DNA of 64,000 nucleotides from Candidatus Dormiibacterota bacterium. Lineage in GTDB: Archaea > Thermoproteota > Bathyarchaeia > 40CM-2-53-6. Numbering within the stretch: the first letter of the stretch is position 1; every line of letters starts with the position of its first letter. The notes beneath the pieces are model-generated. The model did not search any database, was not told the origin of the DNA, and saw only the letters and a list, made by a program, of their open reading frames with translations. The position numbers were made by a program, and so were the translations under genes. Below are positions 8,255-50,532 of this stretch, in pieces. The stretch is from positions 42,539 through 106,538 of the forward strand of contig DASPWZ010000049.1 in NCBI GenBank assembly GCA_035637535.1, in the 5' to 3' direction.

Positions 8255-9949
8255 TTAGTCTCGTACTGCCAGATAGCTGTCGATAAGTTGAGGCACGACT
8301 GTTCGTGCCCCAAACCAAAACTCCTTGTTTGCCTGGTCACCGGGAGCAAACAAGTGGTCAAATTTCAAGCGATCTTCCTCAGATGGCATACGTTCTAGGC
8401 ATCTCAAAGCGAACTCTCGCAATTGACGTGCACTGTCTAAGCCAGCATTCTTAGCCACGTAGTACAGTGCCAGTTTTTCCACTTCTGCGACATCGCGTCC
8501 GGTGTCGCGGCCTGCAAGCCTCAGATTTCCGAGAGTAACGAGGATCTTGTCTTCCAAAGACATCGAAGGTATCTCGTACTGGTTATTGTCTGGTATCCGA
8601 GAAATCAGGTCAGAACCTTTTGGCCGTGAAGCAATCAGCGACTTCATCTCGGCCAAGCTATCGCCAGAGCTTCCCGCAAGCACGAAGACTCTCGGGGTCA
8701 CCTTTGAGGAATCAAGGTATGGAAGCAATGTCTCGTAAGGCCATGACTTGCCAGACTTACCGTCGACTTCGTCGATAAAGAAGAGACTTGGCCTTTCCGA
8801 TTTTTCGGTAGCGGATAGGATTGAGCGAGCCTCCGATTCTTCGACTTCAGCTAAGTTCAAGTGTACATATTCGACATTGCCGCGGTTTCGTTCGAGTGAG
8901 CCTTGCATCTTTTCCGTCTTGGGCTTGGGATGAGCAAGTGTTTCGGTTACCTGTTTGACGAAGAATGTTTTGCCGCTTCCGGGACGGGCCCAAATCAGGT
9001 AGTTCTCATGTTTGGATGCGTTTGAAGATTGGAGGCCTGCCACGATTTTCTGTTTGAGATCTTTCAAAACGTTTCGAGTCTTCTCATTGTATCTCGTGTA
9101 GCTTCCTACCACACAATACTTTGACAATTCGATTTCAGAAGTACGCTCGAGAAGAGAAACTAGTTCCTTAGCTTGAGCCATGGATCGATCGTCCTCGCGA
9201 TCGACCCTTGCCAGTTCGGATACTCCGAGAAACCTTCTAGTTTCCACCAGGAACTCTTTCCACGCCTCCTCATCTTCCATGAGAATGTGGTTTCTACTGT
9301 TCAACGGAACAAAGTGAGCATCAGCGATCCTGGTCGCGAGATCCCTGCCATCCTCGAATGGCAGGACAAGATCGCCCCGGGAGTGCAAAATCAGTGTTGG
9401 CACCGTTATTCTTGGTAGCAGATCTTGGACGTTGATCTGGAGAAATTCTTTGATGAATCGCACTGCGTTCTCTGGTGAGGTAGATTTTTTCTGTAACTCA
9501 GTGAACCAGTGTCGTTCCTCGACCTTTCCATCAGGCATGAAGATTGATGTGAACAACTGTTCATACGCGGGGTTACCTGTTCCCCAGCCGACCCTCGTCA
9601 GGGTCAGCATAGCATTCAACTCTTCAAGATCCCTCATCGACGATCGCGCCTTAGCGCGACCTAGCGCGCTTGCCCCATAGAGAATCAGGTGGTTTACACG
9701 TTCAGGATGTCTTGCCGCGTAAGCTATACTTAACGCTCCACCATGAGAAAGTCCGAGTAGCGCGAATTTCTCGAGCCCAAGGCTATCAACGACCGCTTCC
9801 AGATCCTCTACCCAGTTCTCGAACGTGGAGGATGCTACTTCTCGATCGGAGAGGCCGCATCCACGATCGTCGTATCGAGTGTACGAGTGATACCTTGACA
9901 GCTCCCTACTCCAATGCCTCAAAACCGGACTGTCAAAGTCGAACTGCAA
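8255..9949 (-). CDS. Fusion protein: N-terminal alpha/beta-hydrolase domain plus C-terminal P-loop NTPase (AAA-like). The conserved hydrolase N-terminus continues in frame upstream to about 10072 without a canonical start codon.
   Basis: Hydrolase motifs: 'YDDRGCGLSD', nucleophile elbow 'GLSHGG', acid 'SRGDLVLP', His in 'NSRNHILMED'. ATPase motifs: Walker A 'ARPGSGKTF', Walker B 'LFFIDEVDG', sensor-like 'VFVLAGSS'. The upstream in-frame segment 'IAYSTIGSGPPLVKAATWLGH' matches the hydrolase beta1-beta2 region. Confidence 0.7.
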   Translation of the reverse strand: MQFDFDSPVLRHWSRELSRYHSYTRYDDRGCGLSDREVASSTFENWVEDLEAVVDSLGLEKFALLGLSHGGALSIAYAARHPERVNHLILYGASALGRAKARSSMRDLEELNAMLTLTRVGWGTGNPAYEQLFTSIFMPDGKVEERHWFTELQKKSTSPENAVRFIKEFLQINVQDLLPRITVPTLILHSRGDLVLPFEDGRDLATRIADAHFVPLNSRNHILMEDEEAWKEFLVETRRFLGVSELARVDREDDRSMAQAKELVSLLERTSEIELSKYCVVGSYTRYNEKTRNVLKDLKQKIVAGLQSSNASKHENYLIWARPGSGKTFFVKQVTETLAHPKPKTEKMQGSLERNRGNVEYVHLNLAEVEESEARSILSATEKSERPSLFFIDEVDGKSGKSWPYETLLPYLDSSKVTPRVFVLAGSSGDSLAEMKSLIASRPKGSDLISRIPDNNQYEIPSMSLEDKILVTLGNLRLAGRDTGRDVAEVEKLALYYVAKNAGLDSARQLREFALRCLERMPSEEDRLKFDHLFAPGDQANKEFWFGARTVVPQLIDSYLAVRD

Positions 9950-25201: not shown

Positions 25202-25292
25202 GATTCAATTGTTAATTCTTGGTGTGGCTTGGCCGCTCTTTCGTTGTTCGTGAGACGAGGCAGTGGGAGCTGTTCAGTTAATTGGGAAAATG

Positions 25293-25314
25293 TGGGGAGG
25301 ATTTGAACCCACGT
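25293..25314 (-). repeat. tRNA 3'-end-like fragment: T-arm plus partial acceptor, a decayed copy of the tRNA-Leu 3' end
   Basis: The minus-strand sequence 'GTGGGTTCAAATCCTCCCCACA' shares 'GTGGGTTCAAATCC' with the tRNA-Leu T-arm at 28202-28325. No complete cloverleaf could be folded around it. Confidence 0.35.
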
Positions 25315-25456
25315 CGCGCTCAGCCGAGCCCTCCGTGGACGTTTCTTCATTTGAATTTCTATTTTCGTCGGACATGTTGGTCACCCATGTAATTGTGCTT
25401 GGCTAGCTAAGAACATTCCGGCCGATTTACCAAGTAAGCGACGACGATAGCGGTAC

Positions 25457-25675
25457 ATGAAGTACATGGCCGATGCCAGTCTAGCGCACATTGCTCCGAA
25501 ACTCCGAGACAGAGGCTCAGATTGCGATGCGGTTCAGTTGTTGATGAGGAAGAATGAACACTCTCAAGAGCACATTTCGGATGGCGAGATTGCAAGCATC
25601 CCCAAGAAGGACAAGGTCGCCATCACAATGATCGACTCCGGTATCACCTTCGAAAAGGTAGCCTTGTCTCTCTAA
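25457..25675 (+). CDS. Short PIN-like (Mut7-C / DUF5615-like) protein, possibly truncated
   Basis: N-terminus 'MKYMADASLAHIAPKLRDRG' resembles the DUF5615 start. It is only 72 aa, and no DUF433 partner was found. Confidence 0.25.
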   Translation: MKYMADASLAHIAPKLRDRGSDCDAVQLLMRKNEHSQEHISDGEIASIPKKDKVAITMIDSGITFEKVALSL

Positions 25676-25725
25676 AGATTGCCTAGTCTTAAATACGAAG
25701 AGTCCAGAGTTGGCAATGAAAATCA

Positions 25726-26259
25726 TTGCGCAAACCAAAGATAATGATTCAAATCGGATCGTGTTGTGCCATCCTTGCGGCTCTATCGGTCCTGTCGATT
25801 GGCGTTCCCGTTGTTCACGCGTATGGTAACGCTGCACTTTGGCAGATCGCGCTATCGCAGAACTGCAATAATCCATCCTTCTGCACTCCATTCCAAGGCG
25901 GTTTCTGGCTCTGGGCAGAGTTTGACAGCGACGGTACAGGAGACGCCACCGGTACCGGTTGTGCCCACCTTGTTGCTGGAGGCTCACCAGGAGCGGGCGC
26001 GGACCACTTCAACGCGGATATTCAAGGTTGGACCGTAATGCCCGGCAGCGCAGGACCTCTAACCTTCTTCGTGTTAGGCGGAACCATGACTCTTACTAGC
26101 CATACTGGCGGACCCCCCGTAACAGTCCCAATAGCTCCCCTACCACTTGACACCGGCATTCCCGCCGTAGCTGGTCACTTTTCCACATCAATGATTCTAG
26201 GGTTCACACCGCCGCCTGGCGTGACTTTCGTCATACAAGTAGTGCATTTGACTCATTAG
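25726..26259 (+). CDS. Secreted hypothetical protein (signal peptide; Gly/Thr-rich)
   Basis: N-terminal 'MRKPKIMIQIGSCCAILAALSVLSIGVPVVHA' signal peptide. No known motif. Confidence 0.45.
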   Translation: MRKPKIMIQIGSCCAILAALSVLSIGVPVVHAYGNAALWQIALSQNCNNPSFCTPFQGGFWLWAEFDSDGTGDATGTGCAHLVAGGSPGAGADHFNADIQGWTVMPGSAGPLTFFVLGGTMTLTSHTGGPPVTVPIAPLPLDTGIPAVAGHFSTSMILGFTPPPGVTFVIQVVHLTH

Positions 26260-26572
26260 ATCAGATCAATCCTTCCTCTCCTTTTTCTTCTAATTATTAC
26301 TACTTTGGGACCCCATACAGGGTCCGGTCGTGCGCATACGGGTGTGAGAGGGGACGGTCAACATTATGCGTCAAGATTTGCGCGACTCCGATTTGTTCGT
26401 TCGGGTCCGATTCGGAAATAATAAACAAGCATATAGTCAATTACTAAGCAGGTCAGTGAGCCACCGAGACCTCGTTGACAAAGGCCTAGGCTCCTTGTGA
26501 TTGGAGGCTGGATTCTGTACCGAGATACAACTATTCAAATAGAAGCCTCTCCGGCATTCAAACGCGAACAGC

Positions 26573-26992
26573 ATGCAATCTCAGCAGCAAACTAAAGGCG
26601 AGGTAATCGCCGAGCTACGGGGGAAGACCGACAGCTTCAGCATCAAAGACATCAGTTCTAGCGGTGTCAAGATGGAGAACAACGACGTTGGCCAGATCAC
26701 AGGCAAGTACCAGGCCAGTTTCATGGAAACGATCAGTATCCACGTGAAAACTGACGGTACAAGCGACTGGGAAGGCAAAGGCATCCAAATGGCAGGGCAG
26801 GACATGGTCGTCACCACGAGTAAAGGTCATGGTCATCAAGCCGGTCCAGGAACAATCGCATTCGAGGGAGACGTTCACTTCATGACCCAATCACCGCGCC
26901 TATCATGGCTCAACAACACAAAGGGATGGGTCGAAGGATCAGCCAACCAGGCTGATCAGACGTTCACCGCAAAAGTCTACGCCAAACAGTGA
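26573..26992 (+). CDS. Hypothetical protein (139 aa)
   Basis: ORF with balanced composition. No family recognised. Confidence 0.4.
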   Translation: MQSQQQTKGEVIAELRGKTDSFSIKDISSSGVKMENNDVGQITGKYQASFMETISIHVKTDGTSDWEGKGIQMAGQDMVVTTSKGHGHQAGPGTIAFEGDVHFMTQSPRLSWLNNTKGWVEGSANQADQTFTAKVYAKQ

Positions 26993-27713
26993 CAACACAA
27001 CCGCTCTAACATCCAACTTCTCCTTTTTTTTCGCGGCCTAGAAGAGGTCTGTCATGACGTCCGGCCAATGAACAATCCAGAATTTACGTGGGGCTGTACA
27101 CGTTGTTGTTGAGAATATTTCCCGGGTACCCCATTCTATCAATAGCTGACTCTCCTAGGCACTACCACTTCAAAATGCCACCGCGTGCATTCATAGGTTT
27201 GACTCGGGAGGGGCATTCGTTTCGGTGGAGAAGGATCTCCATGGGATGCGACAATTCGCCGAGATAAGCAAACGTCCCAATGCTTCACGTATGCACCGCT
27301 AAAGGCGTAACCCGGACAACGGCTTCCGATTACTATTGTAACGTGGACAAAAACGTCACTGTTTGATTACCGAAAAAATCTGGTGATAAACAACCCAATT
27401 GGTCCCCACCAACTCCACAATCCTCAGTGATGTTCGCTTTCCTATTGTCTTGAGAGGGACCGCGAACGCATTTGCCTATGCGGTGGTGCTGTTGAGTAAG
27501 TAGAAAAGTCCGCAAACAAATGACAACGGCATGCGGACCTGATTGCTGACGGCGCTCTCTTCCCCTTCGGCTAATACGGTCATGAGGGGAAGAGAAGTTA
27601 GCCAACCCGTCAATTATGACAACCGCGGTCGTCTTTCTCTGTTCCTCCTCTTAGTTTTGTGCACACATACTTATCAGCGCGCTCCCCGCTGGGGATGAAA
27701 AGGGAGGGATACC

Positions 27714-28133
27714 GTGGGCGACAAACGCGATATCGATAGGGCGCGGGCCGAACTCGAACGAGTCGATGCGATGTGGGCCGCAGCCGCAGCCGAGCGTGAC
27801 GTTGAGCGAATTGTTTCGTTTTGGGCTGACGATGCGATCGTTATTCCGCCGGGACAACTTGCTATTATCGGCAAAGATGCAATTCGGGACTACGTGACTG
27901 CGAGCCTAAAGATCCCGGATTTCAGCATTCAATGGAAGACGACTCGGTTTACGATCGCCCGAGCTTGCGACCTCGCGTACGGCGTCGGGACGAACCAAGT
28001 TTCATTCAACGACGAGAGTGGTAATCGATTCATGTTGCGAGGAAAGGCCGTGACTATTTGGCGGACGGAGAGCGGGGGTGCTTGGAAGTGTGTCGTCGAC
28101 ATCTGGAACGACGACCCGCCGCCCGATAAATAG
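27714..28133 (+). CDS. SnoaL-like / NTF2-fold protein (DUF4440-like)
   Basis: 'VSFWADDAIVIPPGQ ... AVTIWRTESGGAWKCVVDIWN' is NTF2-like. Local GC is visibly higher than in the surroundings. Confidence 0.6.
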   Translation: MGDKRDIDRARAELERVDAMWAAAAAERDVERIVSFWADDAIVIPPGQLAIIGKDAIRDYVTASLKIPDFSIQWKTTRFTIARACDLAYGVGTNQVSFNDESGNRFMLRGKAVTIWRTESGGAWKCVVDIWNDDPPPDK

Positions 28134-28201
28134 TGTGACTGTCGAGGGACAATGGAGTCGAGCGAGTGTTCAATGACCAAACCCGGAGCGGAGGGTTTGT
28201 T

Positions 28202-28325
28202 ATTGGTGCGGGGGGTGGGATTTGAACCCACGAACCCCTACGGGACGAGGTCCTGAGCTTCGCGTTCCTCAACCATTCTTGGCAGGGTTGAGTTCTCGCG
28301 CCTTTGACCTGGCTTGGCAACCCCC
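28202..28325 (-). tRNA. tRNA-Leu (anticodon CAG) with a ~36-nt intron at a non-canonical position in the anticodon stem; CCA encoded
   Basis: Manual fold: acceptor GCGGGGG/CCCCCGC. Leu-type D-arm 'GCCAAGCCAGGTCAAAGGC'. Exon junction CGAG|G-CTCAGGA-CCTCG gives anticodon CAG. Long variable arm 'TCCCGTAGGGGTTC'. T-arm GTGGG-TTCAAAT-CCCAC. Discriminator A plus CCA. The intron forms a CTCAACC/GGTTGAG hairpin. Confidence 0.8.
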
Positions 28326-28403
28326 GCGCTGAGTCGAGAGAATTCTGAACTAGTCTGATAAAGCCTTCAAGCCGCGCAGGGATGCAAGCGATATTCTCCC
28401 AGT

Positions 28404-28661
28404 CTATATTCTTGGTCTGATGTGTCTGTATTCTTCGATCTCTTTGAGCCGTTTCTCCCAGTCTCTCATCTGTCTGTCGCGGAGGACCGTGTTGAGTATT
28501 TGGCTTGTGTTCATGTGGAGTTGGGTCCAGCGTTCCCGTGTCTTCAGATCCTTGTCATGGTCAAGCATGATCTTCCTAGACTCTACCAGGCTTTCGAGTA
28601 GCTCTGTTATGATCTGGGTTCGGACCGCGTCTTCTTCTACTGGGTCGTTGTTCTCTGTCAA
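28404..28661 (-). CDS. Hypothetical small helical protein (85 aa)
   Basis: ORF. There is a 2-nt gap to the upstream small ORF on the same strand. Confidence 0.35.
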   Translation of the reverse strand: MTENNDPVEEDAVRTQIITELLESLVESRKIMLDHDKDLKTRERWTQLHMNTSQILNTVLRDRQMRDWEKRLKEIEEYRHIRPRI

Positions 28662-28663
28662 TG

Positions 28664-28936
28664 CTAGGACATTACGCTCCCGTCCGGCTCCTCTGACGCG
28701 AGGGTCATCTTTCGGGCCTGAGCCGCTACCTGGCTGATCGCATCATCCTTCAGAGTACTTCTCCATAGCCGCAGCAGTCTGGAACCTGTGCTGCTGAGCA
28801 GCTGCTTCTGCCCCTGGTCGAGAGTCTTGTCCCTGGACCCTTCCTCGAGATTGTCTAGGACCGCAATGGTTAGCCTGCGAATGTTCACCAGCAACTCCTT
28901 ACGACCAGACTCTCCTCCAGAATCCTCTTCCACCAT
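28664..28936 (-). CDS. Hypothetical small helical protein (90 aa)
   Basis: ORF. First gene of a two-gene unit that ends next to tRNA-Leu. Confidence 0.35.
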   Translation of the reverse strand: MVEEDSGGESGRKELLVNIRRLTIAVLDNLEEGSRDKTLDQGQKQLLSSTGSRLLRLWRSTLKDDAISQVAAQARKMTLASEEPDGSVMS

Positions 28937-29370
28937 TCTCTATCTCCTCTAACGCCTCTTTCATCGGGCGTCACGTCTTGTAGACACGGCAAGACCCGGA
29001 AAACGCGTCAAGACCAGTCTACGAGACGCTACTTCCCAATGATTCTAAGGCACTAGGACGAGAGCCGTTCCTCCCAATAAACGATGTCGTCGAAGACCCT
29101 AGCAGCATACGGAACAGCTAACCGAAGGATACGAAACCGCCCCCAGACACTGAACGTATTCCAACGTCCGAGACAGACGGAAAAATACGTTTTCCAGCAG
29201 AGAAAAAAATTCTTAACAACCCCCCAGGGGCCCATCAAATCTTCCCACAGACTCAAGAAGAACTCTGTACCGCCGACCCAGAAGGGCCGCCTTTCCGCAT
29301 CGGACCCATGAGATAAGGAAGGTGTTAGAAAAAGGGGGTTTGTGTCCCAGGTGGGTCTCGAGAGATATTT

Positions 29371-29658
29371 CTATTTCAACCGTTCAAGTATTATCTCTAT
29401 GGTGGAGACGTTCCGTGCATCCTGGCCATCACCGACAATCTCCGTGCCCAAGTTCACATGCTTCGACAAGCCGCCCTGGAAGAAGCGGTTATTCACCACC
29501 TCAGCCACGTCAACGGCAGTGCTGATGGCTCTTCCACGAGCCTTTAGGGTCAGCTTCTTGGCGCCCGTGTTATAGTGCATCATGACAGCCGTAGCATAAG
29601 CCATGATCGGCTTCTTACCGATCAGTATAGTGTCCGGTGGAATATCAGTTCTACGCAC
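29371..29658 (-). CDS. albA: Alba (Sso10b-type DNA/RNA-binding chromatin protein)
   Basis: 'ILIGKKPIMAYATAVMMHYNTGAKKLTLKARGRAISTAVDVAEVV ... NVSTIEIILE' is the Alba fold signature. The start is placed at an in-frame GTG (MRRTDIPPDTILIGKK...). The ORF-track N-extension to 29847 is low-complexity and unlikely to be real. Confidence 0.75.
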   Translation of the reverse strand: MRRTDIPPDTILIGKKPIMAYATAVMMHYNTGAKKLTLKARGRAISTAVDVAEVVNNRFFQGGLSKHVNLGTEIVGDGQDARNVSTIEIILERLK

Positions 29659-30076
29659 AGGGGCAGGAGCCCTCTCAGTCTTCCTTGGTTCTTCTGACAA
29701 GCAATTCACCTCCGACAGCGCGAGTACGATGTCCGGCAAAACGCCACTAAGACGGAAGACCCCTAAATAGCTATCTGAAACCCGAGATCCCAACGCACCT
29801 CGACCAGACCTCTGAAGCCCCCGGCTCAACCCAGCAGCACTAGACACTCGCTCATTCTCAATCTAGCCGAAACAACCTCGGGAAGACGTCTCGATACCAG
29901 AGCTCAGGAATCCGAGATCCAAACTTCCCGCTAGAAAATGTCTCCTGATTCTGTAATCAAATCCCAGAAAAACTCTTCGCGACTCGTTCAAATTAGCTGA
30001 ACAGGCTACGAATTGTTCCTTCCTTCTTGTTCAAATTCCAACGTTTATCTCCAACGGAAGCATAAGATATCCTTCT

Positions 30077-30334
30077 ATGCCCAAATTCATGCAGTCACTC
30101 GGAGAAGAAAACTACCACAGACTCCTCGCGGAGGCAAAAGCAAGAGACGTCACCGTACAAGCACTAATCCGCACCATCGTCATTCCAGACTGGCTCAAAG
30201 CGGTCCCAACGGGACAGACAAACATCCAGAACACCCTGGCACAACCCACGCGCCTCCTACCCCGCACAGGCATACTCACGGAGCAGGCCCGCAGGCCTCT
30301 CCTAAACGCCACAATCGGGCGGGCTAGAACCTAG
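30077..30334 (+). CDS. Putative ribbon-helix-helix (CopG/Arc-like) small protein
   Basis: Predicted N-terminal beta strand plus two helices: 'KFMQSL..EENYHRLLAEAKARDVTVQALIRTIV'. Confidence 0.3.
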   Translation: MPKFMQSLGEENYHRLLAEAKARDVTVQALIRTIVIPDWLKAVPTGQTNIQNTLAQPTRLLPRTGILTEQARRPLLNATIGRART

Positions 30335-30434
30335 CCCCGCTCCCTTTTTTTCCTGCGATACGCATCTCCACTAAGAACGTAAGATTCTAGGCCTCAATTC
30401 TCAGAGACGCTACTGGCCATCTGCCTTCTGTGCA

Positions 30435-46052: not shown

Positions 46053-48287
46053 TCACCTTAGGGTTGCGGTTAATGATTTGACATCGTAGCCGAAGGGTTG
46101 CAAGAGGTTCGATGTTGACGAAACGAGTAGGTCAACGTATCTTTCAGGATCGTAGACGGTATCGTCGTCCGCCAGTTCTGGGGGCAAGGCTTGACCTTCA
46201 GGAATTGTTGACATATTAATCGTCAGAACGTAACTTACCTGCTGTCCTGCGTGAACTGTTCCTCCTTCGTCGATAAGATACTGGGCTGCGATCGCTTGGG
46301 GTACGCGGTGAGTATACTCGTTAGGCATCTTGCTCAAATTCTTCGTAATTATCAGCTCGTCGATAGGAACCGTGCCGCTTCGCAGTTTTGAAGCATATTC
46401 TCTGAGTGTGTTGAGAACTTGAGGAATAAGTGCTTGGAACTCCCGTGAATTATCTGCTTCCTTTAGGATTGCCAACATTTGTGTCTGGCATTTCTCAACT
46501 ATCTTGGGAGTGTCGTGGCGTCGGACATCGATACCCCGAACCTTGAGGGTCCGGTCTTGGTCTTGAAAGGTGCCATAGTACCGGTTGAGGACTGGCGCCT
46601 GCGGGTCTGTTTTGGAATTGAGGAAAACTATCCACCTGTATTGGCCCTCAAAACTAAGGGGGAGTTTCAGATCCTCTCTGATCACTGCACATAGTTCTTC
46701 ATAATCAGCCGCTGTCGCATCAGCTTTTGTAAGCCACATAGAGTCAACGATTCCATGCACGAGTTTGAAGCCTCTAGCTTGGGCTATTGCCACAGCACGG
46801 TGGAGGAAGATTCGTGAGAAGGCGCATGTCGCTATGTGCGCGTCTATCTTTCCGAACCGGGCGTTCTTAAATCCAAGATAGCCGAATGAACAGACCAGAA
46901 TCCACTTTAGTGCTGACTGACGTGCATCATACTTCTGCCTCTTCAGCTCATCTTTTTCGTCTTTCTTGAGTTGCTTGTACTTCGATCTTCTATCGAGGAG
47001 AATCTCAAGAGATTGTGGGACGATGCCTCGCCATCGGTCGCAGATATTGTAGTCTAGCTCTGGAACCCGACGGGGCGAGTTGGGGCAGCATTTGCATTTG
47101 ACGGTTTCTCCGCTTAGGTTCTGGTCCATCATTATAGTTGGGTAGAGGCTGGTGAAGTCCAGTTCTCCCACTTGATCATAGATCCCGGTCTCGGGTTCGT
47201 GGATGAAGCCTCCTCTGTCGGCGATGACTAGTTCGTTACTATCTTTCCATTCTTCGGGCTGGTTCTTGTTCCATGGGATTAGCACGTTTTCTTTGACCGC
47301 ATGGTAGAATTGTAGACTAGTCATGTTGGTGCCTATGGTCGCCCGGCTGGCTCGCTGAATCGGAATAATACACGTCCGAGCGATTTCGAATAGTCCTTCG
47401 AGTCCACAGTCAGCGCTGATGAAGGCGTTGTGGTCGTCAATATGCAGTCGACCTAGTAGGCGAGCGGCGGTCTCTCTGTACAGAATTTTTCCGTAGGAGA
47501 AATAGGAGTGGCCTTGAACCTCGTAGATTCTTAGTGGTGAGGGGTCTCTGCCGAGAACTAGTCTGTTGAGCATCCCGTTTTTGTGGGCGCGTCTCGCTAA
47601 GTACGGGAAGATGAACGAGTCTCCACCTTCTGTAATGACAATGTCCGGATCTATTCCGTTGAAGGTTTCAACGAGGCTGAGGAGTTTCTCCTCTTCACTG
47701 CCTGAATCGAGAACGAGTATCTCTTCCCGATCGGTTATTATTCTAAGGGAGTCTAGCTCGTCCTCGAAGGTTCGAATTCTCTTTTTCTTTCGGGTCTTAA
47801 TTTCTAGTCTGGTCTTTCGAAGCGGGGGTAGTTTGTAGTCTATTGTTTTTCTGGAATCTTTCAGGGTCCATTCAATTTTCTCGTCCCTTTCCTCTGCCTC
47901 GACGAAGGCTAGCGGGAACAGGTCTTTCTGGTAGAGGTAGACTTGGGGAGAGGGAACGTCTACATCGTAGAGGCGGAAATTGGAATAGCTGCTTTCCCGC
48001 TGTATCCTCCGCGCAAGCCTTGTAGCCTCCTCATCATTCTCTACTACGACCTCAAGGACTCGGGATTTTTCTATGTCGCCAGCCCTTTCAAATTTGTCGA
48101 CAAAAATCGAGTTTTCAACGTAGGATTTGCACGCGAGATCAACTAGCTTTCGGTAGTCGCCTCCCACGTGTATTCTCGGCTTCCATCTGTCTGTGAGCCT
48201 TACGCACTTTCCGTCGGGTTTTTTCAGCCATACTACCATCTGGCCTGGTTTCTGGTAGAGGTCGAGAATCCAGCCTAGATGCTTCAC
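46053..48287 (-). CDS. Family-B DNA polymerase with degenerate exonuclease and polymerase motifs (PolB2/Dpo2-like 'inactivated' PolB)
   Basis: Motif A 'DFTSLYPTIMM' is intact. Motif B reads 'KWILVCSFGYLGF', lacking the N and Y of KxxxNSxYG. Motif C reads 'HGIVDSMW', with the first Asp of DTDS lost. Exo I aligns to 'LEIK' and Exo II to 'FIFPYL' instead of FDxPY. GTG start. Confidence 0.8.
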   Translation of the reverse strand: MKHLGWILDLYQKPGQMVVWLKKPDGKCVRLTDRWKPRIHVGGDYRKLVDLACKSYVENSIFVDKFERAGDIEKSRVLEVVVENDEEATRLARRIQRESSYSNFRLYDVDVPSPQVYLYQKDLFPLAFVEAEERDEKIEWTLKDSRKTIDYKLPPLRKTRLEIKTRKKKRIRTFEDELDSLRIITDREEILVLDSGSEEEKLLSLVETFNGIDPDIVITEGGDSFIFPYLARRAHKNGMLNRLVLGRDPSPLRIYEVQGHSYFSYGKILYRETAARLLGRLHIDDHNAFISADCGLEGLFEIARTCIIPIQRASRATIGTNMTSLQFYHAVKENVLIPWNKNQPEEWKDSNELVIADRGGFIHEPETGIYDQVGELDFTSLYPTIMMDQNLSGETVKCKCCPNSPRRVPELDYNICDRWRGIVPQSLEILLDRRSKYKQLKKDEKDELKRQKYDARQSALKWILVCSFGYLGFKNARFGKIDAHIATCAFSRIFLHRAVAIAQARGFKLVHGIVDSMWLTKADATAADYEELCAVIREDLKLPLSFEGQYRWIVFLNSKTDPQAPVLNRYYGTFQDQDRTLKVRGIDVRRHDTPKIVEKCQTQMLAILKEADNSREFQALIPQVLNTLREYASKLRSGTVPIDELIITKNLSKMPNEYTHRVPQAIAAQYLIDEGGTVHAGQQVSYVLTINMSTIPEGQALPPELADDDTVYDPERYVDLLVSSTSNLLQPFGYDVKSLTATLR

Positions 48288-48348
48288 GAAGAATCAAGAT
48301 GCGCTTCTCTATTCTGGGACTAATTCGGAAGAGCGGGACGAAGAGCGA

Positions 48349-48368
48349 ATGTGAAACAGATGTGAAAC
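48349..48368 (-). promoter_or_regulatory. Tandem direct repeat (2 x 9 nt 'atgtgaaac' on the plus strand, 'GTTTCACAT' on the gene strand, 11-nt period) about 60-80 nt upstream of the PolB2-like start
   Basis: Exact 9-nt repeat with a 2-nt spacer. An AT-rich TATA-like 'aataga' lies about 25 nt upstream of the GTG. Confidence 0.3.
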
Positions 48369-48390
48369 TGTAGGAAAGTAAACGGAGGGG

Positions 48391-49389
48391 CTACTGATAA
48401 CCAAGTAGCGTTTTGTCCAGCGTAATAACCTCGTCTTCCTTCTGAGGGGTGAAGGGGTGACGGGCTATGATGAGCTGTGTATAGGCTCCTCTGTCCTTCA
48501 GTCTCGCAGAAACATGGGCAGTATGCATCAAAGCGTCTGTCATGGTCTTGTTTCTTGCCTTCTGATTCGTGGCTATAATTATCATGTTTCTCTGCTCAGC
48601 CGTTTTTCCCAGAAATTGTACGCTTTGGCGGAAGATGTCCAGTGCTTCTTGCTTTTCTCGTACGTCAGGATCGCAGAAGAGGGCCGTGATGTCAGAGACG
48701 ACAGCGAGTCTAGCTCCATACTCATCTAATGCTGCGGTTAGTTTTTCCACAATGAGGCTGTGAACTTGGTGATGCGTGAAGGCTCTGCTTAGATGAATAC
48801 GTTGCTGCACTCGGCCAGATTCCAGTCCGAGATTGACGATGTGCTGAGAGATGGTGTATGTGTCGAAGACGTTACCTGCATCTATGAAAACAACATCGCT
48901 ACCCAAGCCTTGGGAGAGTGTTGCTCGGACGCAGAGGAGGAGAGAAAGAGCATGCGATGGTTCACCCTCGAGGAAGACAAACTGGCCCGTTTTGAGAATC
49001 AATGCCTTGTCTAGAGACTCTATCCCGGTGGTTATGCCCGGTTGGAGGTCTCGGGGGAGGTTGCTTCCCCGACGTGTTTGGTATTCGATCTGGTCGTCTG
49101 GCTCTCTCAGGAGTTCTGGGTCTCTACATTTCAGGCTGGTGAGGAGGCGTCTTCCCGGAGGAAGAGGGGAGGCTCGGCAGCCTAAGACCCTGTCCAGTTC
49201 GAAGCCGCAGCTGGGACAGGTTCCGTCGAAGACTAGTTTGATTTTTCTAGGATTGACTTGTTGTTTTGATAGGACTAGGGCTTCGTCGCAGAGGATACAA
49301 TGGTACAGGTAGCCCTCGCTGCCTTTCTCTATCTGGTCTATCTGCCATGTCTTGGGTTGTAGAGAGTCGATGGTATGGCGTGTTTCCAT
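48391..49389 (-). CDS. RadA/RecA-superfamily paralog with an N-terminal Cys4 zinc ribbon and a degenerate Walker A
   Basis: 'CILCDE...CPSCGF' zinc ribbon. RecA-like core 'GITTGIESLDKAL..GQFVFLEGEPSHALS' in which GxxGxGKT is replaced. Walker-B-like 'VVFIDAG'. 20-nt gap after radA. Confidence 0.65.
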   Translation of the reverse strand: METRHTIDSLQPKTWQIDQIEKGSEGYLYHCILCDEALVLSKQQVNPRKIKLVFDGTCPSCGFELDRVLGCRASPLPPGRRLLTSLKCRDPELLREPDDQIEYQTRRGSNLPRDLQPGITTGIESLDKALILKTGQFVFLEGEPSHALSLLLCVRATLSQGLGSDVVFIDAGNVFDTYTISQHIVNLGLESGRVQQRIHLSRAFTHHQVHSLIVEKLTAALDEYGARLAVVSDITALFCDPDVREKQEALDIFRQSVQFLGKTAEQRNMIIIATNQKARNKTMTDALMHTAHVSARLKDRGAYTQLIIARHPFTPQKEDEVITLDKTLLGYQ

Positions 49390-49409
49390 CGCAGACCCTT
49401 AGGGTTGTT

Positions 49410-50381
49410 CTATTCGTCGCGTCTGCTCTTTGGAGCGGCGTCTTCCACGCCTTTCGCGGTGATCTGGAAGTAGGTCTCAGACTCTGGCAAGTATGGTGAG
49501 TCGATGATTTTGGCAACTCGTAGCCCCTGGCTGGCTTTCTTCAGCATGACTCTATGTGTGGAGGCGTGAGCTAGAATGTTTCCGCCCGCGGGACGCATGG
49601 GGTCACCGAAAAACGCTTGAGGGTTAGCTTGAACTTGGTTTGTTATGACGACTGCTAGGTTAAGGGCTTGAGCTATTCGGAGGAGTTTGTGGAGGTGGCT
49701 GTTTAGGCGTTGTTGTCGTTCGCTTAGGGATTCGCGTCCGATGTATTCGCCTCTGAAGTGGGAGAGGATTGAGTCAACGACTAGGAGTTTGATGTTTTCT
49801 TCTTGGCAGATTTTGAATGCGTGGTCGACCGTGAGGATCTGGTGGTCACTGTTATAGACGCGGCTGTAGATGATGCCGTCGAGTATCTTGTCCGCGTCGA
49901 GTCCCATTGCCTGGGCCATCTGGTAGACTCTTTGGGCTGCGAATGTTCCTTCAGTGTCGATGAAGAGGGCTTTGCCTTCGAGGCCGCCGTCTTTGGTTGG
50001 TAGCTGGACGTTGACGCTGAGCTTCATACAAATCTGTGATTTGCCTGCTCCGAATTCTCCGACAAACTCTGTAATGGCCTGGGTTTCAAGCCCGTTTCCC
50101 AGCAGCTTGTCAAGATTAGTGGATGCAAAGCTGAGCCTCTGGAGGCTCAATCTCCTCTCATAGAGCTGTTTAGCGGTGACAAAGTCTGTCTGTATCGTTT
50201 CCCGAGCAGCTCGGGAGATTTTGAGGGCGACGCTGTTCTCTAGGCCTGCTTTTTCGACTAGCTCTCGTATTGGTGCGATGGCTAGGGATGCGATGGAGTC
50301 GTAGCCTGCATCGCGGAGCTTGCCGGCGGTTACTGGTCCAACGCCGTTAAGATCTTGAATATTCACTATCTCTTCAGCCAA
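49410..50381 (-). CDS. radA: DNA repair and recombination protein RadA
   Basis: N-terminal HhH 'DLNGVGPVTAGKLRDAGY'. Walker A 'GEFGAGKSQ'. 'LLVVDS' Walker B. 323 aa. TTG start ('MAEEI'). Confidence 0.92.
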   Translation of the reverse strand: MAEEIVNIQDLNGVGPVTAGKLRDAGYDSIASLAIAPIRELVEKAGLENSVALKISRAARETIQTDFVTAKQLYERRLSLQRLSFASTNLDKLLGNGLETQAITEFVGEFGAGKSQICMKLSVNVQLPTKDGGLEGKALFIDTEGTFAAQRVYQMAQAMGLDADKILDGIIYSRVYNSDHQILTVDHAFKICQEENIKLLVVDSILSHFRGEYIGRESLSERQQRLNSHLHKLLRIAQALNLAVVITNQVQANPQAFFGDPMRPAGGNILAHASTHRVMLKKASQGLRVAKIIDSPYLPESETYFQITAKGVEDAAPKSRRDE

Positions 50382-50532
50382 AGACTATCGGAGCGAGGAT
50401 AGTCTGGTCATGGCTTATCTCCCAGAGTGAGGACCGTAAGTAACAAGATCTAGGCTAGGAATCTGTTCTGGTCGTGTTCAATTTGAGGCCTTTAGAGAGT
50501 AAATGCCCCTAGAGGAGTGAAAGTATTCGACC

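Follow-up and report, generated by a model that had tools for sequence, protein, structure and literature searches.

The association of the archaeal polymerase PolB2 with an inactivated RadA (iRadA) was described in 2013-2014 (Makarova, Krupovic & Koonin 2014, PMC4104785), and the set PolB2-iRadA-PPB2 has been modelled as a 'mutasome' (Timinskas et al. 2025, PMC11791011). PPB2 (arCOG07300; Pfam PF26485, DUF8156), a helical protein of ~85 aa with an N-terminal MGRT, is a key element of the PolB2 complex in the published model, and clamp-binding motifs have been reported at iRadA C-termini (PMC11791011). The first Asp of the motif C DxD is replaced in most PolB2 members, not all, and PolB2 enzymes in which this motif reads I-x-D are active translesion polymerases (PMC4104785, PMC11791011). 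The Sulfolobus enzyme, PolB2/Dpo2, is a translesion extender induced by damage. The PolB2 genes of S. islandicus are damage-induced and Orc1-2-dependent, and the Sulfolobus damage element ANTTTC (consensus AATAGTTTCR) is bound by Orc1-2 (PMC6061795).

Here, we analyzed a 64-kb stretch of DNA (the window) from a soil Bathyarchaeia genome, which carries a lineage-specific version of the published PolB2-iRadA damage-tolerance module. It differs from the published picture in the position of radA directly 5' of iRadA, the zinc ribbon of iRadA, the absence of PPB2, and a shared damage-element-like 10-mer. An earlier reading of the window, made from the sequence only, had taken the cluster to be undescribed. 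This does not hold for the pairing of PolB2 with an inactivated RadA, which is published (PMC4104785, PMC11791011), but no mention of the upstream radA, of the iRadA zinc ribbon or of a missing PPB2 was found in the papers that could be searched. The damage-tolerance role proposed in that reading is still the best one. We consider it likely that the cluster represents the archaeal PolB2 translesion-synthesis module in its Bathyarchaeia form, placed directly 3' of an ordinary recombinase gene.

Three genes on the minus strand

The minus strand carries three ORFs, at 49410-50381 (323 aa), 48391-49389 (332 aa) and 46053-48287 (744 aa), in the order canonical radA, iRadA, PolB2. The gaps are of 20 nt (49390-49409) and 103 nt (48288-48390), in agreement with the three co-directional genes and the 20-nt and ~100-nt gaps first reported for this DNA. 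The features are as follows.

50518-50527, minus strand: AATACTTTCA, exact damage-element-like 10-mer 146 nt 5' of radA, the sole exact match in the 64-kb window
50434-50443, minus strand: TTACTTACGG, degenerate element copy at the usual radA position (matched to the element of relatives)
49410-50381, minus strand: radA, canonical, presumably the housekeeping recombinase (NCBIfam RadA equivalogs above cutoff, HhH, Walker A/B, FVTA)
49390-49409, minus strand: radA-iRadA spacer, 20 nt (19-24 nt in most pair-carrying loci), with no upstream element
48391-49389, minus strand: iRadA, predicted ATPase-dead protein of Rad51/RadA fold (48% core identity to the L012 iRadA)
49207-49299, minus strand: Cys4 zinc-ribbon motif in the iRadA N-terminal domain (4 Cys invariant in 25 homologues)
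48943-48972, minus strand: degenerate Walker A, LEGEPSHALS, iRadA residues 140-149 (alignment to RadA)
48394-48414, minus strand: iRadA C-terminal tail KTLLGYQ, PCNA-binding-like (C-termini compared with relatives)
48288-48390, minus strand: iRadA-PolB2 spacer, 103 nt, presumed PolB2 promoter region, conserved among close relatives
48351-48369, minus strand: damage-element-like AGTTTCACATCTGTTTCAC, ~70-82 nt 5' of the PolB2 start, resembling ANTTTC
46053-48287, minus strand: PolB2-type family-B polymerase (48% identity to published PolB2, NCBIfam, motifs)
47598-47627, minus strand: PolB2 Exo II remnant, GGDSFIFPYL, with I226 for the catalytic Asp (motif alignment)
47136-47162, minus strand: PolB2 motif A, LDFTSLYPT (D377), intact (motif alignment)
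46878-46907, minus strand: PolB2 motif B, KWILVCSFGY, intact here and an insertion hot spot in relatives
46740-46757, minus strand: PolB2 motif C, HGIVDS (DTD to IVD), the same motif as in the PMC11791011 supplement

Gene 1 clears the cutoffs of NCBIfam NF003301 (437 bits; cutoff 259) and of TIGR02236 (413 bits; cutoff 361), and matches both Pfam Rad51 and HHH_5. Its product has a Walker A (GEFGAGKS, 108-115), a Walker B (LLVVDS, 199-204) and a polymerisation motif (FVTA, 67-70). With a dN/dS of 0.01-0.03 against close relatives, RadA is predicted to be an intact, strongly constrained recombinase, and its earlier description as canonical stands.

For the second gene, residues 120-282 match Pfam Rad51 (32 bits), and the best Foldseek matches of the AlphaFold2 model (mean pLDDT 67.8) are Dmc1, RAD51 and RadA (E ~1e-10, probability 1.00). 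Neither an HHH_5 match nor an FxxA ahead of the core was found; in that place lies the zinc-ribbon domain, modelled as small and beta-rich (residues 20-96, pLDDT 70-84), for which a search of Pfam gave no significant match. Its cysteines C31, C34, C58 and C61 (C-x2-C ... C-x2-C) are found without exception in 25 family members with identities as low as 56%. The RadA GEFGAGKS aligns to FLEGEPSH, with S145 for the Walker A Lys and H146 for the Ser, leaving no intact GxxGxGK[ST], and this degenerate Walker A is itself conserved across the iRadA family. These results bear out the earlier claim that the second gene encodes a RecA-fold paralog with a Cys4 ribbon and a dead ATPase site. Over its core, the protein shares 48% identity (E 4e-66) with the iRadA from the canonical iRadA-PPB2-PolB2 operon of L012, and 25% with the neighbouring RadA. 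By these comparisons the paralog is an orthologue of iRadA, the predicted ATPase-dead, Rad51-fold partner of PolB2, and the N-terminal Cys4 zinc ribbon is a gain of iRadA in this lineage. A RadB identity was rejected (TIGR02237, 26 bits; cutoff 172). A QTLxxYL C-terminal tail is common to the iRadA family, and the KTLLGYQ found here repeats, in weakened form, the PCNA-binding-like motif that relatives carry (NQTLxxYL, KQTLESYI).

The third gene matches Pfam DNA_pol_B (118 bits) and archaeal PolB structures (E 1e-46 with the single sequence, 1e-86 with a profile). Its best NCBIfam matches are NF004418 (374 bits) and NF004416 (361 bits), versus at most 222 bits for the DNA polymerase I models. 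It is 48% identical over 399 aa to a Bathyarchaeota PolB2 from the PMC11791011 supplement, and 30-32% identical over its full length to haloarchaeal PolB2, including that of Haloarcula mannanilytica, a species in the same supplement; the block from motif B to motif C (ALKWILV...HGIVDS) is common to the window and haloarchaeal proteins. Identities, motifs and profile scores all place it with PolB2 and not with PolB1 or PolB3, as its assignment to the PolB2/Dpo2 type had anticipated.

No change is seen in motif A (LDFTSLYPT), which retains D377. Motif B, KxxxNSxYG, reads K461-WIL-V-C-S-F-G, and motif C, YxDTDS, reads HGIVDS (residues 511-516), the first Asp being I513 and the metal-binding second Asp, D515, being retained. 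The Exo II NGDNFD has become GGDSFI, with I226 replacing the Asp. At the probable Exo I site, placed by motif pattern and MAFFT register, LEIKT stands for FDIET; HMMER prefers another register (DSRK, 144-147), and the DxE is broken in both. Finally, the ~65 residues that hold Exo III in PolB3 have been lost from the stretch that runs from GRLHID (279-284) to residue 302. The sequence-only reading was right about the altered Exo I and II, the altered motifs B and C and the intact motif A, but 'catalytically degenerate' was an overstatement, since D377 and D515 are kept. The enzyme is predicted to be exonuclease-dead with both polymerase metal ligands retained. The invariant ADRGGF block (D357-R358), beside the region of the RadA-like oligomerisation motif, is also retained.

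Gene order in related loci and the small subunit PPB2

The arrangement is not unique to this genome. A radA-iRadA pair is found in ~25 Bathyarchaeia loci, with a spacing of 19-24 nt (~98 nt in L018), and PolB2 is adjacent in all of them except L005. The orientation of PolB2 varies. All three genes point the same way, separated by short gaps, in the window, L001, L006, L019-L024, L129 and L131, PolB2 is convergent to radA-iRadA in eight loci (L007-L010, L021, L028, L035, L038), and an opposite-strand TPR gene separates it from the pair in L003, L130 and L132.

This pattern bears on whether the zinc-ribbon paralog is mainly a RadA mediator, like Rad51 paralogs, RadB and aRadC, with a historical or secondary link to PolB2. 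No link in the cluster is tighter than that of radA to the paralog (~20 nt in most loci), and it persists both in L005, which no longer has PolB2 and retains PPB2 as a pseudogene, and in the eight loci with PolB2 on the opposite strand. Moreover, a paralog that has no FxxA but keeps the RecA core could accept the FVTA of RadA, and RAD51D is among its best matches in a sequence search of solved structures. Yet the orthology of the paralog to the iRadA of PolB2 operons is clear, PPB2 comes next after it in L129, L006, L013 and L017, PolB2 neighbours the pair everywhere but in L005, and the RadB score is far below cutoff. We regard a mainly mediator function as unlikely and retain the PolB2 module as the preferred reading. 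A RadA-mediator role and a PolB2-partner role of iRadA are compatible with each other.

In the four loci just named, the PPB2 gene lies directly 3' of the zinc-ribbon iRadA; L129, whose flanking genes match those of the window, has the order radA-iRadA-PPB2-PolB2. In the window, iRadA adjoins PolB2 and PPB2 is absent, whereas the syntenic L129 and L006 have it. The 103-nt spacer is too short for PPB2, a six-frame search of the 64-kb window with filters off gave no match at E <=10 to an HMM made from 8 PPB2 sequences of related loci, and no window ORF begins with MGRT-like residues. Nor did the same HMM find PPB2 in close relatives, searched over ~150 kb of sequence that overlaps in part. Synteny points to the four-gene radA-iRadA-PPB2-PolB2 as the ancestral state, with PPB2 removed from the locus in the lineage of the window. 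The absence of PPB2 and the weakened PIP-like tail of iRadA (KTLLGYQ) count against reading the cluster as a PolB2 module.

Could iRadA and PolB2 then be functionless remnants, decaying in this sublineage after the loss of PPB2? The eroded tail, the degenerate proximal radA element (see below) and a 1-nt insertion in PolB2 motif B of the closest relatives (L019, L020 and L022) would all fit. However, neither ORF is broken in the window, and the catalytic Asp residues of PolB2 and D357-R358 are kept. The dN/dS values against close relatives are 0.10-0.19 for iRadA and 0.07-0.15 for PolB2, and between the L019 and L020 PolB2 genes dN/dS is 0.10 even downstream of the frameshift. All three genes, radA included, are under purifying selection, and decay is a very improbable explanation.

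Upstream elements and transcription units

Relatives carry AATAGTTTCA[CT] 59-80 nt 5' of PolB2 (in L018 the ORF call puts it at 20 nt), and the element is also kept where PolB2 is convergent to radA. Across 812 kb of loci, 23 copies of the 10-mer AATA[CG]TTTCA are present where ~3 would be expected, and 21 of the 23 lie either at these distances 5' of PolB2 or 5' of radA, at ~62 nt (146 nt in the sublineage of the window). In the window, ANTTTC elements are found upstream of radA (AATACTTTCA) and of PolB2 (AGTTTCAC, which differs from the 10-mer at 2 positions), the positional enrichment across loci being strong. The radA element lies ~60 nt upstream in relatives and 146 nt upstream in the sublineage of the window, where only the degenerate copy TTACTTACGG occupies the usual -60 position. 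No element of this type is present in the radA-iRadA spacer. Also counting against the preferred reading are the degenerate -60 element of radA, the 2 mismatches in the PolB2 element, and the lack of an Orc1/Cdc6 gene among the annotated window ORFs (the scan covered all but 12 of the 42 ORFs that reach 180 aa).

The radA and iRadA genes are probably co-transcribed. PolB2 is preceded by its own conserved element and therefore probably has its own promoter, which makes two co-regulated units of the locus and not one three-gene operon. The operon of the sequence-only reading, an undescribed recombination-repair cluster on a single transcript, is accordingly doubtful: co-directional genes with short gaps in the window and in the related loci listed above speak for it, but two of its three components are the published PolB2-iRadA pair, the element precedes PolB2 itself, PolB2 is convergent to the pair in eight related loci, and the TPR gene intervenes in three others. 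We hold it to be most improbable.

Under the preferred reading, a PolB2 module beside radA, the motif positions suggest that radA-iRadA and PolB2 form two separate transcription units, and that each is preceded by an element with the same core as the damage-response element bound by Orc1-2 in Sulfolobales. With such an element before each unit, recombinase, adaptor and polymerase would therefore switch on together. By analogy with the published work on Sulfolobus Dpo2, PolB2 would be induced after DNA damage and would extend primer ends past lesions without proofreading. As in the published AlphaFold models, it may bind iRadA via the RadA-like oligomerisation motif, and the C-terminal tail of iRadA may bring it to PCNA. 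More speculatively, iRadA made together with active RadA might dock on or cap RadA filaments, which could couple lesion bypass or D-loop extension to recombination, in a way that recalls RecA as a component of E. coli Pol V. A wider reading is that, in one soil Bathyarchaeia lineage, the PolB2 module is coupled to homologous recombination, with RadA and the dead adaptor made from one transcript, a two-subunit enzyme of PolB2 and zinc-ribbon iRadA working without PPB2, and both units under an ANTTTC-type damage element. This we put forward tentatively, as possible but rather doubtful. If true, an Orc1-2-style damage regulon, known only from Sulfolobales, would be common to TACK archaea.

Comparison with known systems

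Bacterial RadA/Sms, an active ATPase/helicase, places a C4 zinc finger at its N terminus ahead of a RecA-like domain and has a Lon-like domain at its C terminus. The likeness to the window paralog is one of layout only: the NCBIfam sms model does not match iRadA, and matches the window RadA weakly (20 bits; cutoff 403).

The E. coli Pol V mutasome (UmuD'2C-RecA-ATP) also combines a translesion polymerase, a RecA-family protein and a small subunit, an analogy drawn in PMC11791011, and in the window the gene of an active recombinase is physically linked. In contrast, Pol V is a Y-family enzyme that uses active RecA itself, whereas the window has a dedicated dead paralog, and a role of active RadA is suggested here by gene adjacency only.

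With the Sulfolobales damage regulon (Sun et al. 2018, PMC6061795) the Bathyarchaeia loci share AATA[GC]TTTCA at a fixed distance 5' of PolB2 and radA. The phylum is another one, the distance between element and start codon is 60-80 nt in Bathyarchaeia and not 23-55 nt, and the window copies are partly degenerate.

The closest system is the PolB2-iRadA-PPB2 operon. The window locus departs from it in that neither the locus nor any other part of the window encodes PPB2, an additional Cys4 zinc ribbon of ~95 residues, plus a linker, stands at the N terminus of iRadA, active radA is joined to the front of the cluster, and PolB2 appears to have its own promoter. What the two have in common is a polymerase of the same clade with a dead exonuclease and an I-x-D motif C, a Rad51-fold partner with destroyed ATPase motifs, no HhH domain and a clamp-binding-like C-terminal tail, and an order in which iRadA precedes PolB2, with PPB2 between them in the syntenic L129.

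The three genes and their products

The window has a G+C content of about 51% and is an ordinary chromosomal stretch, whose genes include those for a class II ribonucleotide reductase, CDC48, a KaiC-like ATPase, MoxR/DUF58 proteins and thymidylate kinase. All close matches to it are soil Bathyarchaeia MAGs or soil metagenome contigs. The three genes under study are separated by spacers of 20 nt (radA to iRadA) and 103 nt (iRadA to PolB2):

49410-50381, minus strand: gene 1, radA, ORF of 323 aa
48391-49389, minus strand: gene 2, iRadA (inactivated RadA paralog), ORF of 332 aa
46053-48287, minus strand: gene 3, PolB2 (family-B DNA polymerase), ORF of 744 aa

The flanking genes have no relation to DNA metabolism: MsrA, an aldo-keto reductase, DUF4097 and a small membrane protein lie upstream, and a convergent PLP-dependent enzyme and RidA lie downstream. 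Rfam and tRNA scans of the 64-kb window gave no matches, and a bacterial promoter/terminator scan was uninformative, since the host is an archaeon. In a segment of about 5.2 kb elsewhere in the window (25202-30434), neither strand has an ORF of at least 180 aa, and the tRNA and Rfam scans were negative there too.

Gene 1 encodes a canonical RadA, as the sequence-only reading had stated. It scores far above cutoff with both NCBIfam RadA equivalog models, and all the motifs are present: the HhH domain, Walker A (GEFGAGKS), Walker B (LLVVDS) and the polymerisation motif (FVTA).

Gene 2 encodes a Rad51/RadA core matched by Pfam Rad51. The best Foldseek matches of its AlphaFold2 model (mean pLDDT 67.8, with the termini worse than the core) are Dmc1, RAD51 and RadA filaments. 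The RadA P-loop GEFGAGKS aligns with FLEGEPSH, with loss of the Lys and Ser, and this degenerate P-loop is conserved within the iRadA family; both the HhH domain and the FxxA motif are absent. The N-terminal ~96 residues are modelled as a small beta-rich domain with a CxxC-23-CxxC pattern, whose cysteines are invariant (4/4) among 25 iRadA homologues, down to 56% identity. The Cys4 ribbon and the lost Walker A Lys proposed from sequence were therefore both confirmed by alignment. A Pfam search with the isolated N-terminal domain returned sub-threshold zinc-ribbon matches only, none of them significant. The family C-terminus, (N/K)QTLxxY(L/I), weakened to KTLLGYQ in the window, looks like a PCNA-interacting tail. 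Over the core, identity is 48% (E 4e-66) with the iRadA of L012, a locus with the canonical iRadA-PPB2-PolB2 operon, vs 25% with the adjacent RadA. Gene 2 is assigned as an iRadA orthologue on this comparison, and a recent duplication of the neighbouring radA was rejected on the same values.

The motifs of gene 3, a family-B polymerase, were compared with those of Pyrococcus and Thermococcus PolB. Of the polymerase motifs, A is preserved (LDFTSLYPT, D377), B reads KWILVCSFG in place of KxxxNSxYG, and C reads IVD in place of DTD, with D515 retained. The exonuclease sites are lost: the Exo II Asp is replaced by I226, no DxE is found at Exo I in either plausible register, and the segment bearing Exo III in PolB3 is absent. 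The earlier motif-by-motif description (altered Exo sites and motifs B and C, intact motif A) thus holds on alignment. The accompanying label of a catalytically degenerate polymerase is right in that the centre is altered, but the centre is not dead, as the metal ligands D377 and D515 are kept. The two best-scoring NCBIfam models are both named "type B DNA-directed DNA polymerase"; the DNA polymerase I models score lower. Gene 3 is 48% identical over 399 aa to a Bathyarchaeota PolB2 printed in the supplement of PMC11791011, and it has the block ALKWILV...HGIVDS in common with haloarchaeal PolB2 from the same list. These sequence features place gene 3 in the PolB2 group.

Locus layouts and the fate of PPB2

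PPB2 (arCOG07300, Pfam PF26485, DUF8156) is the small third subunit of the published PolB2 module. We compared 43 loci from GTDB species genomes, obtained with a PolB2 query, and nine from contigs encoding zinc-ribbon iRadA homologues. RadA, iRadA and PolB2 were mapped with phmmer across the fetched loci; for PPB2 we used an HMM trained on the small ORFs that separate iRadA from PolB2 in canonical loci. The adjacency of radA and iRadA is conserved, and four layouts were found: canonical, radA-linked co-directional, convergent and that of L005.

Layouts of the fetched loci
Canonical (iRadA without zinc ribbon, PPB2 starting MGRT, PolB2): L012, L015, L025, L026, L030-L032, L034, L037, L047 and haloarchaeal loci
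Co-directional (radA, 19-24 nt, or ~98 nt in L018, zinc-ribbon iRadA, PolB2), intact PPB2 between iRadA and PolB2: L129
Co-directional, PPB2 without MGRT: L006
Co-directional, no PPB2: window, L001, L018-L020, L022, L024, L131
Co-directional, opposite-strand TPR-repeat gene (~303 aa) where PPB2 would be: L003:9011-9925, L130:10006-10917, L132:8401-9312
Convergent (radA-iRadA pair facing an opposite-strand PolB2): L007-L010, L021, L028, L035, L038
L005: radA-iRadA, then a frameshifted PPB2 remnant at 8926-9254; no PolB2 within 8 kb

The flanking genes of L129 are those of the window on both sides. From these layouts, including the PPB2 of L129, it follows that the locus in the window descends from an ancestor with four genes and has since lost PPB2 from this position. 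The PPB2 HMM, run in six frames with filters off, had no match in the 64-kb window at E <=10, and a start-motif scan of the window found none. As weak evidence against a PPB2 elsewhere in the genome of this lineage, protein-database searches for PPB2 gave no match on the 1.28-Mb L001 contig among the top 120 listed; a 154-aa ORF after the L001 PolB2 was rejected as PPB2, its translation looking non-coding. All three convergent loci that extend far enough (L008, L009, L035) have an intact solitary PPB2 at a distance of about 7.5 kb. Soil metagenomes contain this solitary type (MGRTIPSWRLVVNDE...) in great abundance, with 455 relatives, of which the best 80 (L049-L128) are all at least 86% identical. 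All of these best 80 loci in the metagenome scan with the PPB2 alignment were of the solitary type, again a weak negative. The zinc ribbon as a simple replacement for PPB2 was rejected, both being present in L129, L006, L013 and L017.

Loss of PPB2 could have left iRadA and PolB2 to decay. This is contradicted by their dN/dS values of 0.10-0.19 and 0.07-0.15, respectively (0.01-0.03 for RadA against close relatives), and because of these values we conclude that the two genes are not decaying.

The radA-iRadA pair of L005 lacks PolB2, and the pair therefore outlives polymerase loss at that site. Together with the convergent loci, this supports the less likely reading of gene 2 as mainly a RadA mediator, a role that may coexist with one alongside PolB2. 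L005 and the complete four-gene locus L129 are found in one NCBI assembly (GCA_030157145.1), which is therefore probably a mixed bin or a metagenome.

Other variants were observed. L132 has the same TPR arrangement as L003 and L130, without radA upstream of iRadA; its iRadA is extended by 30 residues at the C-terminus and lacks a PIP-like tail, and a Y-family polymerase gene (Pfam IMS, L132:1942-3024) lies 4.4 kb upstream of it. A second, divergent PolB2 system is located between radA and the zinc-ribbon iRadA in L017:600-12250 and L036:1200-12250. One of its two components is a RadA-like protein whose C-terminus is a fused PPB2-like part (MGRLTIPF...); the other is a PolB2-like gene of 679 aa. 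Next in order come the zinc-ribbon iRadA, then PPB2 and finally the main PolB2.

Insertions at PolB2 motif B

The motif B codons of PolB2 are an insertion hot spot in relatives of the window, where the homologous site (46861-46907) is uninterrupted.

Insertion sites in PolB2 motif B
GC-hairpin insert: L011:1823-1893; L012:11372-11442; L013:4811-4878; L017:11382-11448; L018:11372-11442; L023:989-1059; L025:8874-8944; L031:6980-7052; L032:11372-11441; L033:2970-3036; L036:11381-11447
1-nt insertion (TCC TTT C GGC): L019:6500-6547; L020:6891-6938; L022:2780-2827
LAGLIDADG intein: L001:10475-12114; L028:8552-10191; L035:12494-14133; L038:1629-3268; L130:11074-14934

The GC-hairpin insert, present inside the motif B codons of 11 loci, has the pattern TGCTCAT[AGCCGC..loop..GCGGCGRGCAA]TYGG and an in-frame TAG. 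Its lengths are 20, 21, 23, 24 and 26 nt, most of them not multiples of three. With the insert excised, C-S-F-G-Y is restored exactly, and 10 of the 11 loci regain a full-length ORF. In the RNA fold, an exon helix is followed by a helix of 4-5 bp (UGCUC with GRGCA), a bulge of 3 nt (AU|A) and a GC hairpin with a variable loop; L032 shows one compensatory change (C:G to U:A). By this fold, the insert looks like a relaxed bulge-helix-bulge mRNA intron; in archaeal protein genes such introns have so far been described essentially only in cbf5 (PMC2738675).

The 1-nt insertion is found in the species genomes closest to the window (L019, L020 and L022, with PolB2 89-94% identical) and divides PolB2 into two frames at the same motif B codon, with no further disruption. 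Purifying selection acts downstream of the shift, where dN/dS between L019 and L020 is 0.10. A programmed +1 frameshift at UUU-CGG and a recently shared lesion are both possible readings of the sequence.

Finally, a LAGLIDADG intein of about 1.6 kb interrupts motif B immediately behind ILVC, at a distance of one codon from the site of the GC-hairpin insert. With 1653 aa, the PolB2 ORF of L035 may contain a further intein. The presence of an intein in a polymerase assumed to be inactive is consistent with a functional PolB2.

Upstream elements and comparison with known systems

The 103-nt spacer before PolB2 in the window contains AGTTTCACATCTGTTTCAC, and relatives carry AATAGTTTCA(C/T) 59-80 nt before PolB2 (20 nt in L018, by ORF call). 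This element is also kept in the convergent loci, whose PolB2 cannot be reached by read-through from radA-iRadA. Upstream of radA, relatives carry (A/T)ATACTTTCAC at about 60 nt. Over 812 kb of loci we counted 23 exact copies of the 10-mer AATA[CG]TTTCA vs ~3 expected, 21/23 of them at the PolB2- and radA-upstream positions; the 10-mer is absent from the best 80 of the 455 metagenome relatives (L049-L128). The window has a single exact 10-mer, 146 nt upstream of radA. A search for tandem TTTCAC-N6-TTTCAC missed the PolB2 site, since its spacing is actually 5 nt. The promoter-proximal block is doubled upstream of radA in the window, L020 and L024, with copies about 84 nt apart; in the window these are:

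50518-50527, minus strand: distal copy, exact AATACTTTCA
50434-50443, minus strand: proximal copy at the usual -60 position, degenerate TTACTTACGG

The core of the radA/PolB2 upstream element equals that of the Sulfolobales damage-response element (ANTTTC, 20-bp consensus AATAGTTTCRGWDTACTCWS), which is bound by Orc1-2 and needed for induction (PMC6061795). We infer from these motifs two units, radA-iRadA and PolB2, that would be under common damage-responsive control. The occurrence of a Sulfolobus-type element in Bathyarchaeia appears to be new. The single dedicated three-gene operon of the sequence-only reading is contradicted by PolB2 retaining its own conserved upstream element, and its novelty by the literature, in which the combination is already found. 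Makarova, Krupovic and Koonin (2014) predicted operons joining PolB2, inactivated RadA-family ATPases and the ~90-aa arCOG07300 protein across archaea and in some bacteria (PMC4104785). The names iRadA and PPB2 come from Timinskas et al. (2025), who also modelled these partners with PolB2 as a PolB2-iRadA-PPB2(x3) complex and reported clamp-binding motifs at iRadA C-termini and replacement of the first Asp of DxD in most PolB2, for example IID in S. islandicus (PMC11791011). The core of the finding is thus already known and adds no new category.

PMC4104785 and PMC11791011, the two papers on this system in the literature searched, do not mention radA linkage, zinc-ribbon iRadA or PPB2-less loci under selection, and the covered part of the PMC11791011 supplement mentions neither zinc nor a neighbouring RadA. 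Within this literature, these three features appear new. Lineages that keep PolB2 and iRadA under purifying selection with no nearby PPB2 offer a natural experiment on the proposed PolB2 mutasome, in which the indispensability of PPB2 can be judged. The Sulfolobus-type element before radA and PolB2 gives a testable handle on damage regulation in an uncultured archaeal class.

In S. islandicus, Dpo2 (PolB2) is damage-induced in an Orc1-2-dependent manner (PMC6061795) and is described as a translesion extender (PMC8764526). On the evidence of the cited papers, PolB2 would bind iRadA via a RadA-like oligomerisation motif, the iRadA tail would recruit PCNA, and the enzyme would extend past lesions. 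More speculatively, iRadA, having kept the acceptor core and no donor FxxA motif, might be co-translated with active RadA and dock on RadA filaments. In the literature searched, the fixed radA-iRadA pairing is the first gene-level hint that the dead paralog may also interact with the active recombinase. Such docking could couple bypass to recombination, comparable to the link between RecA and Pol V, an analogy that the pairing sharpens.
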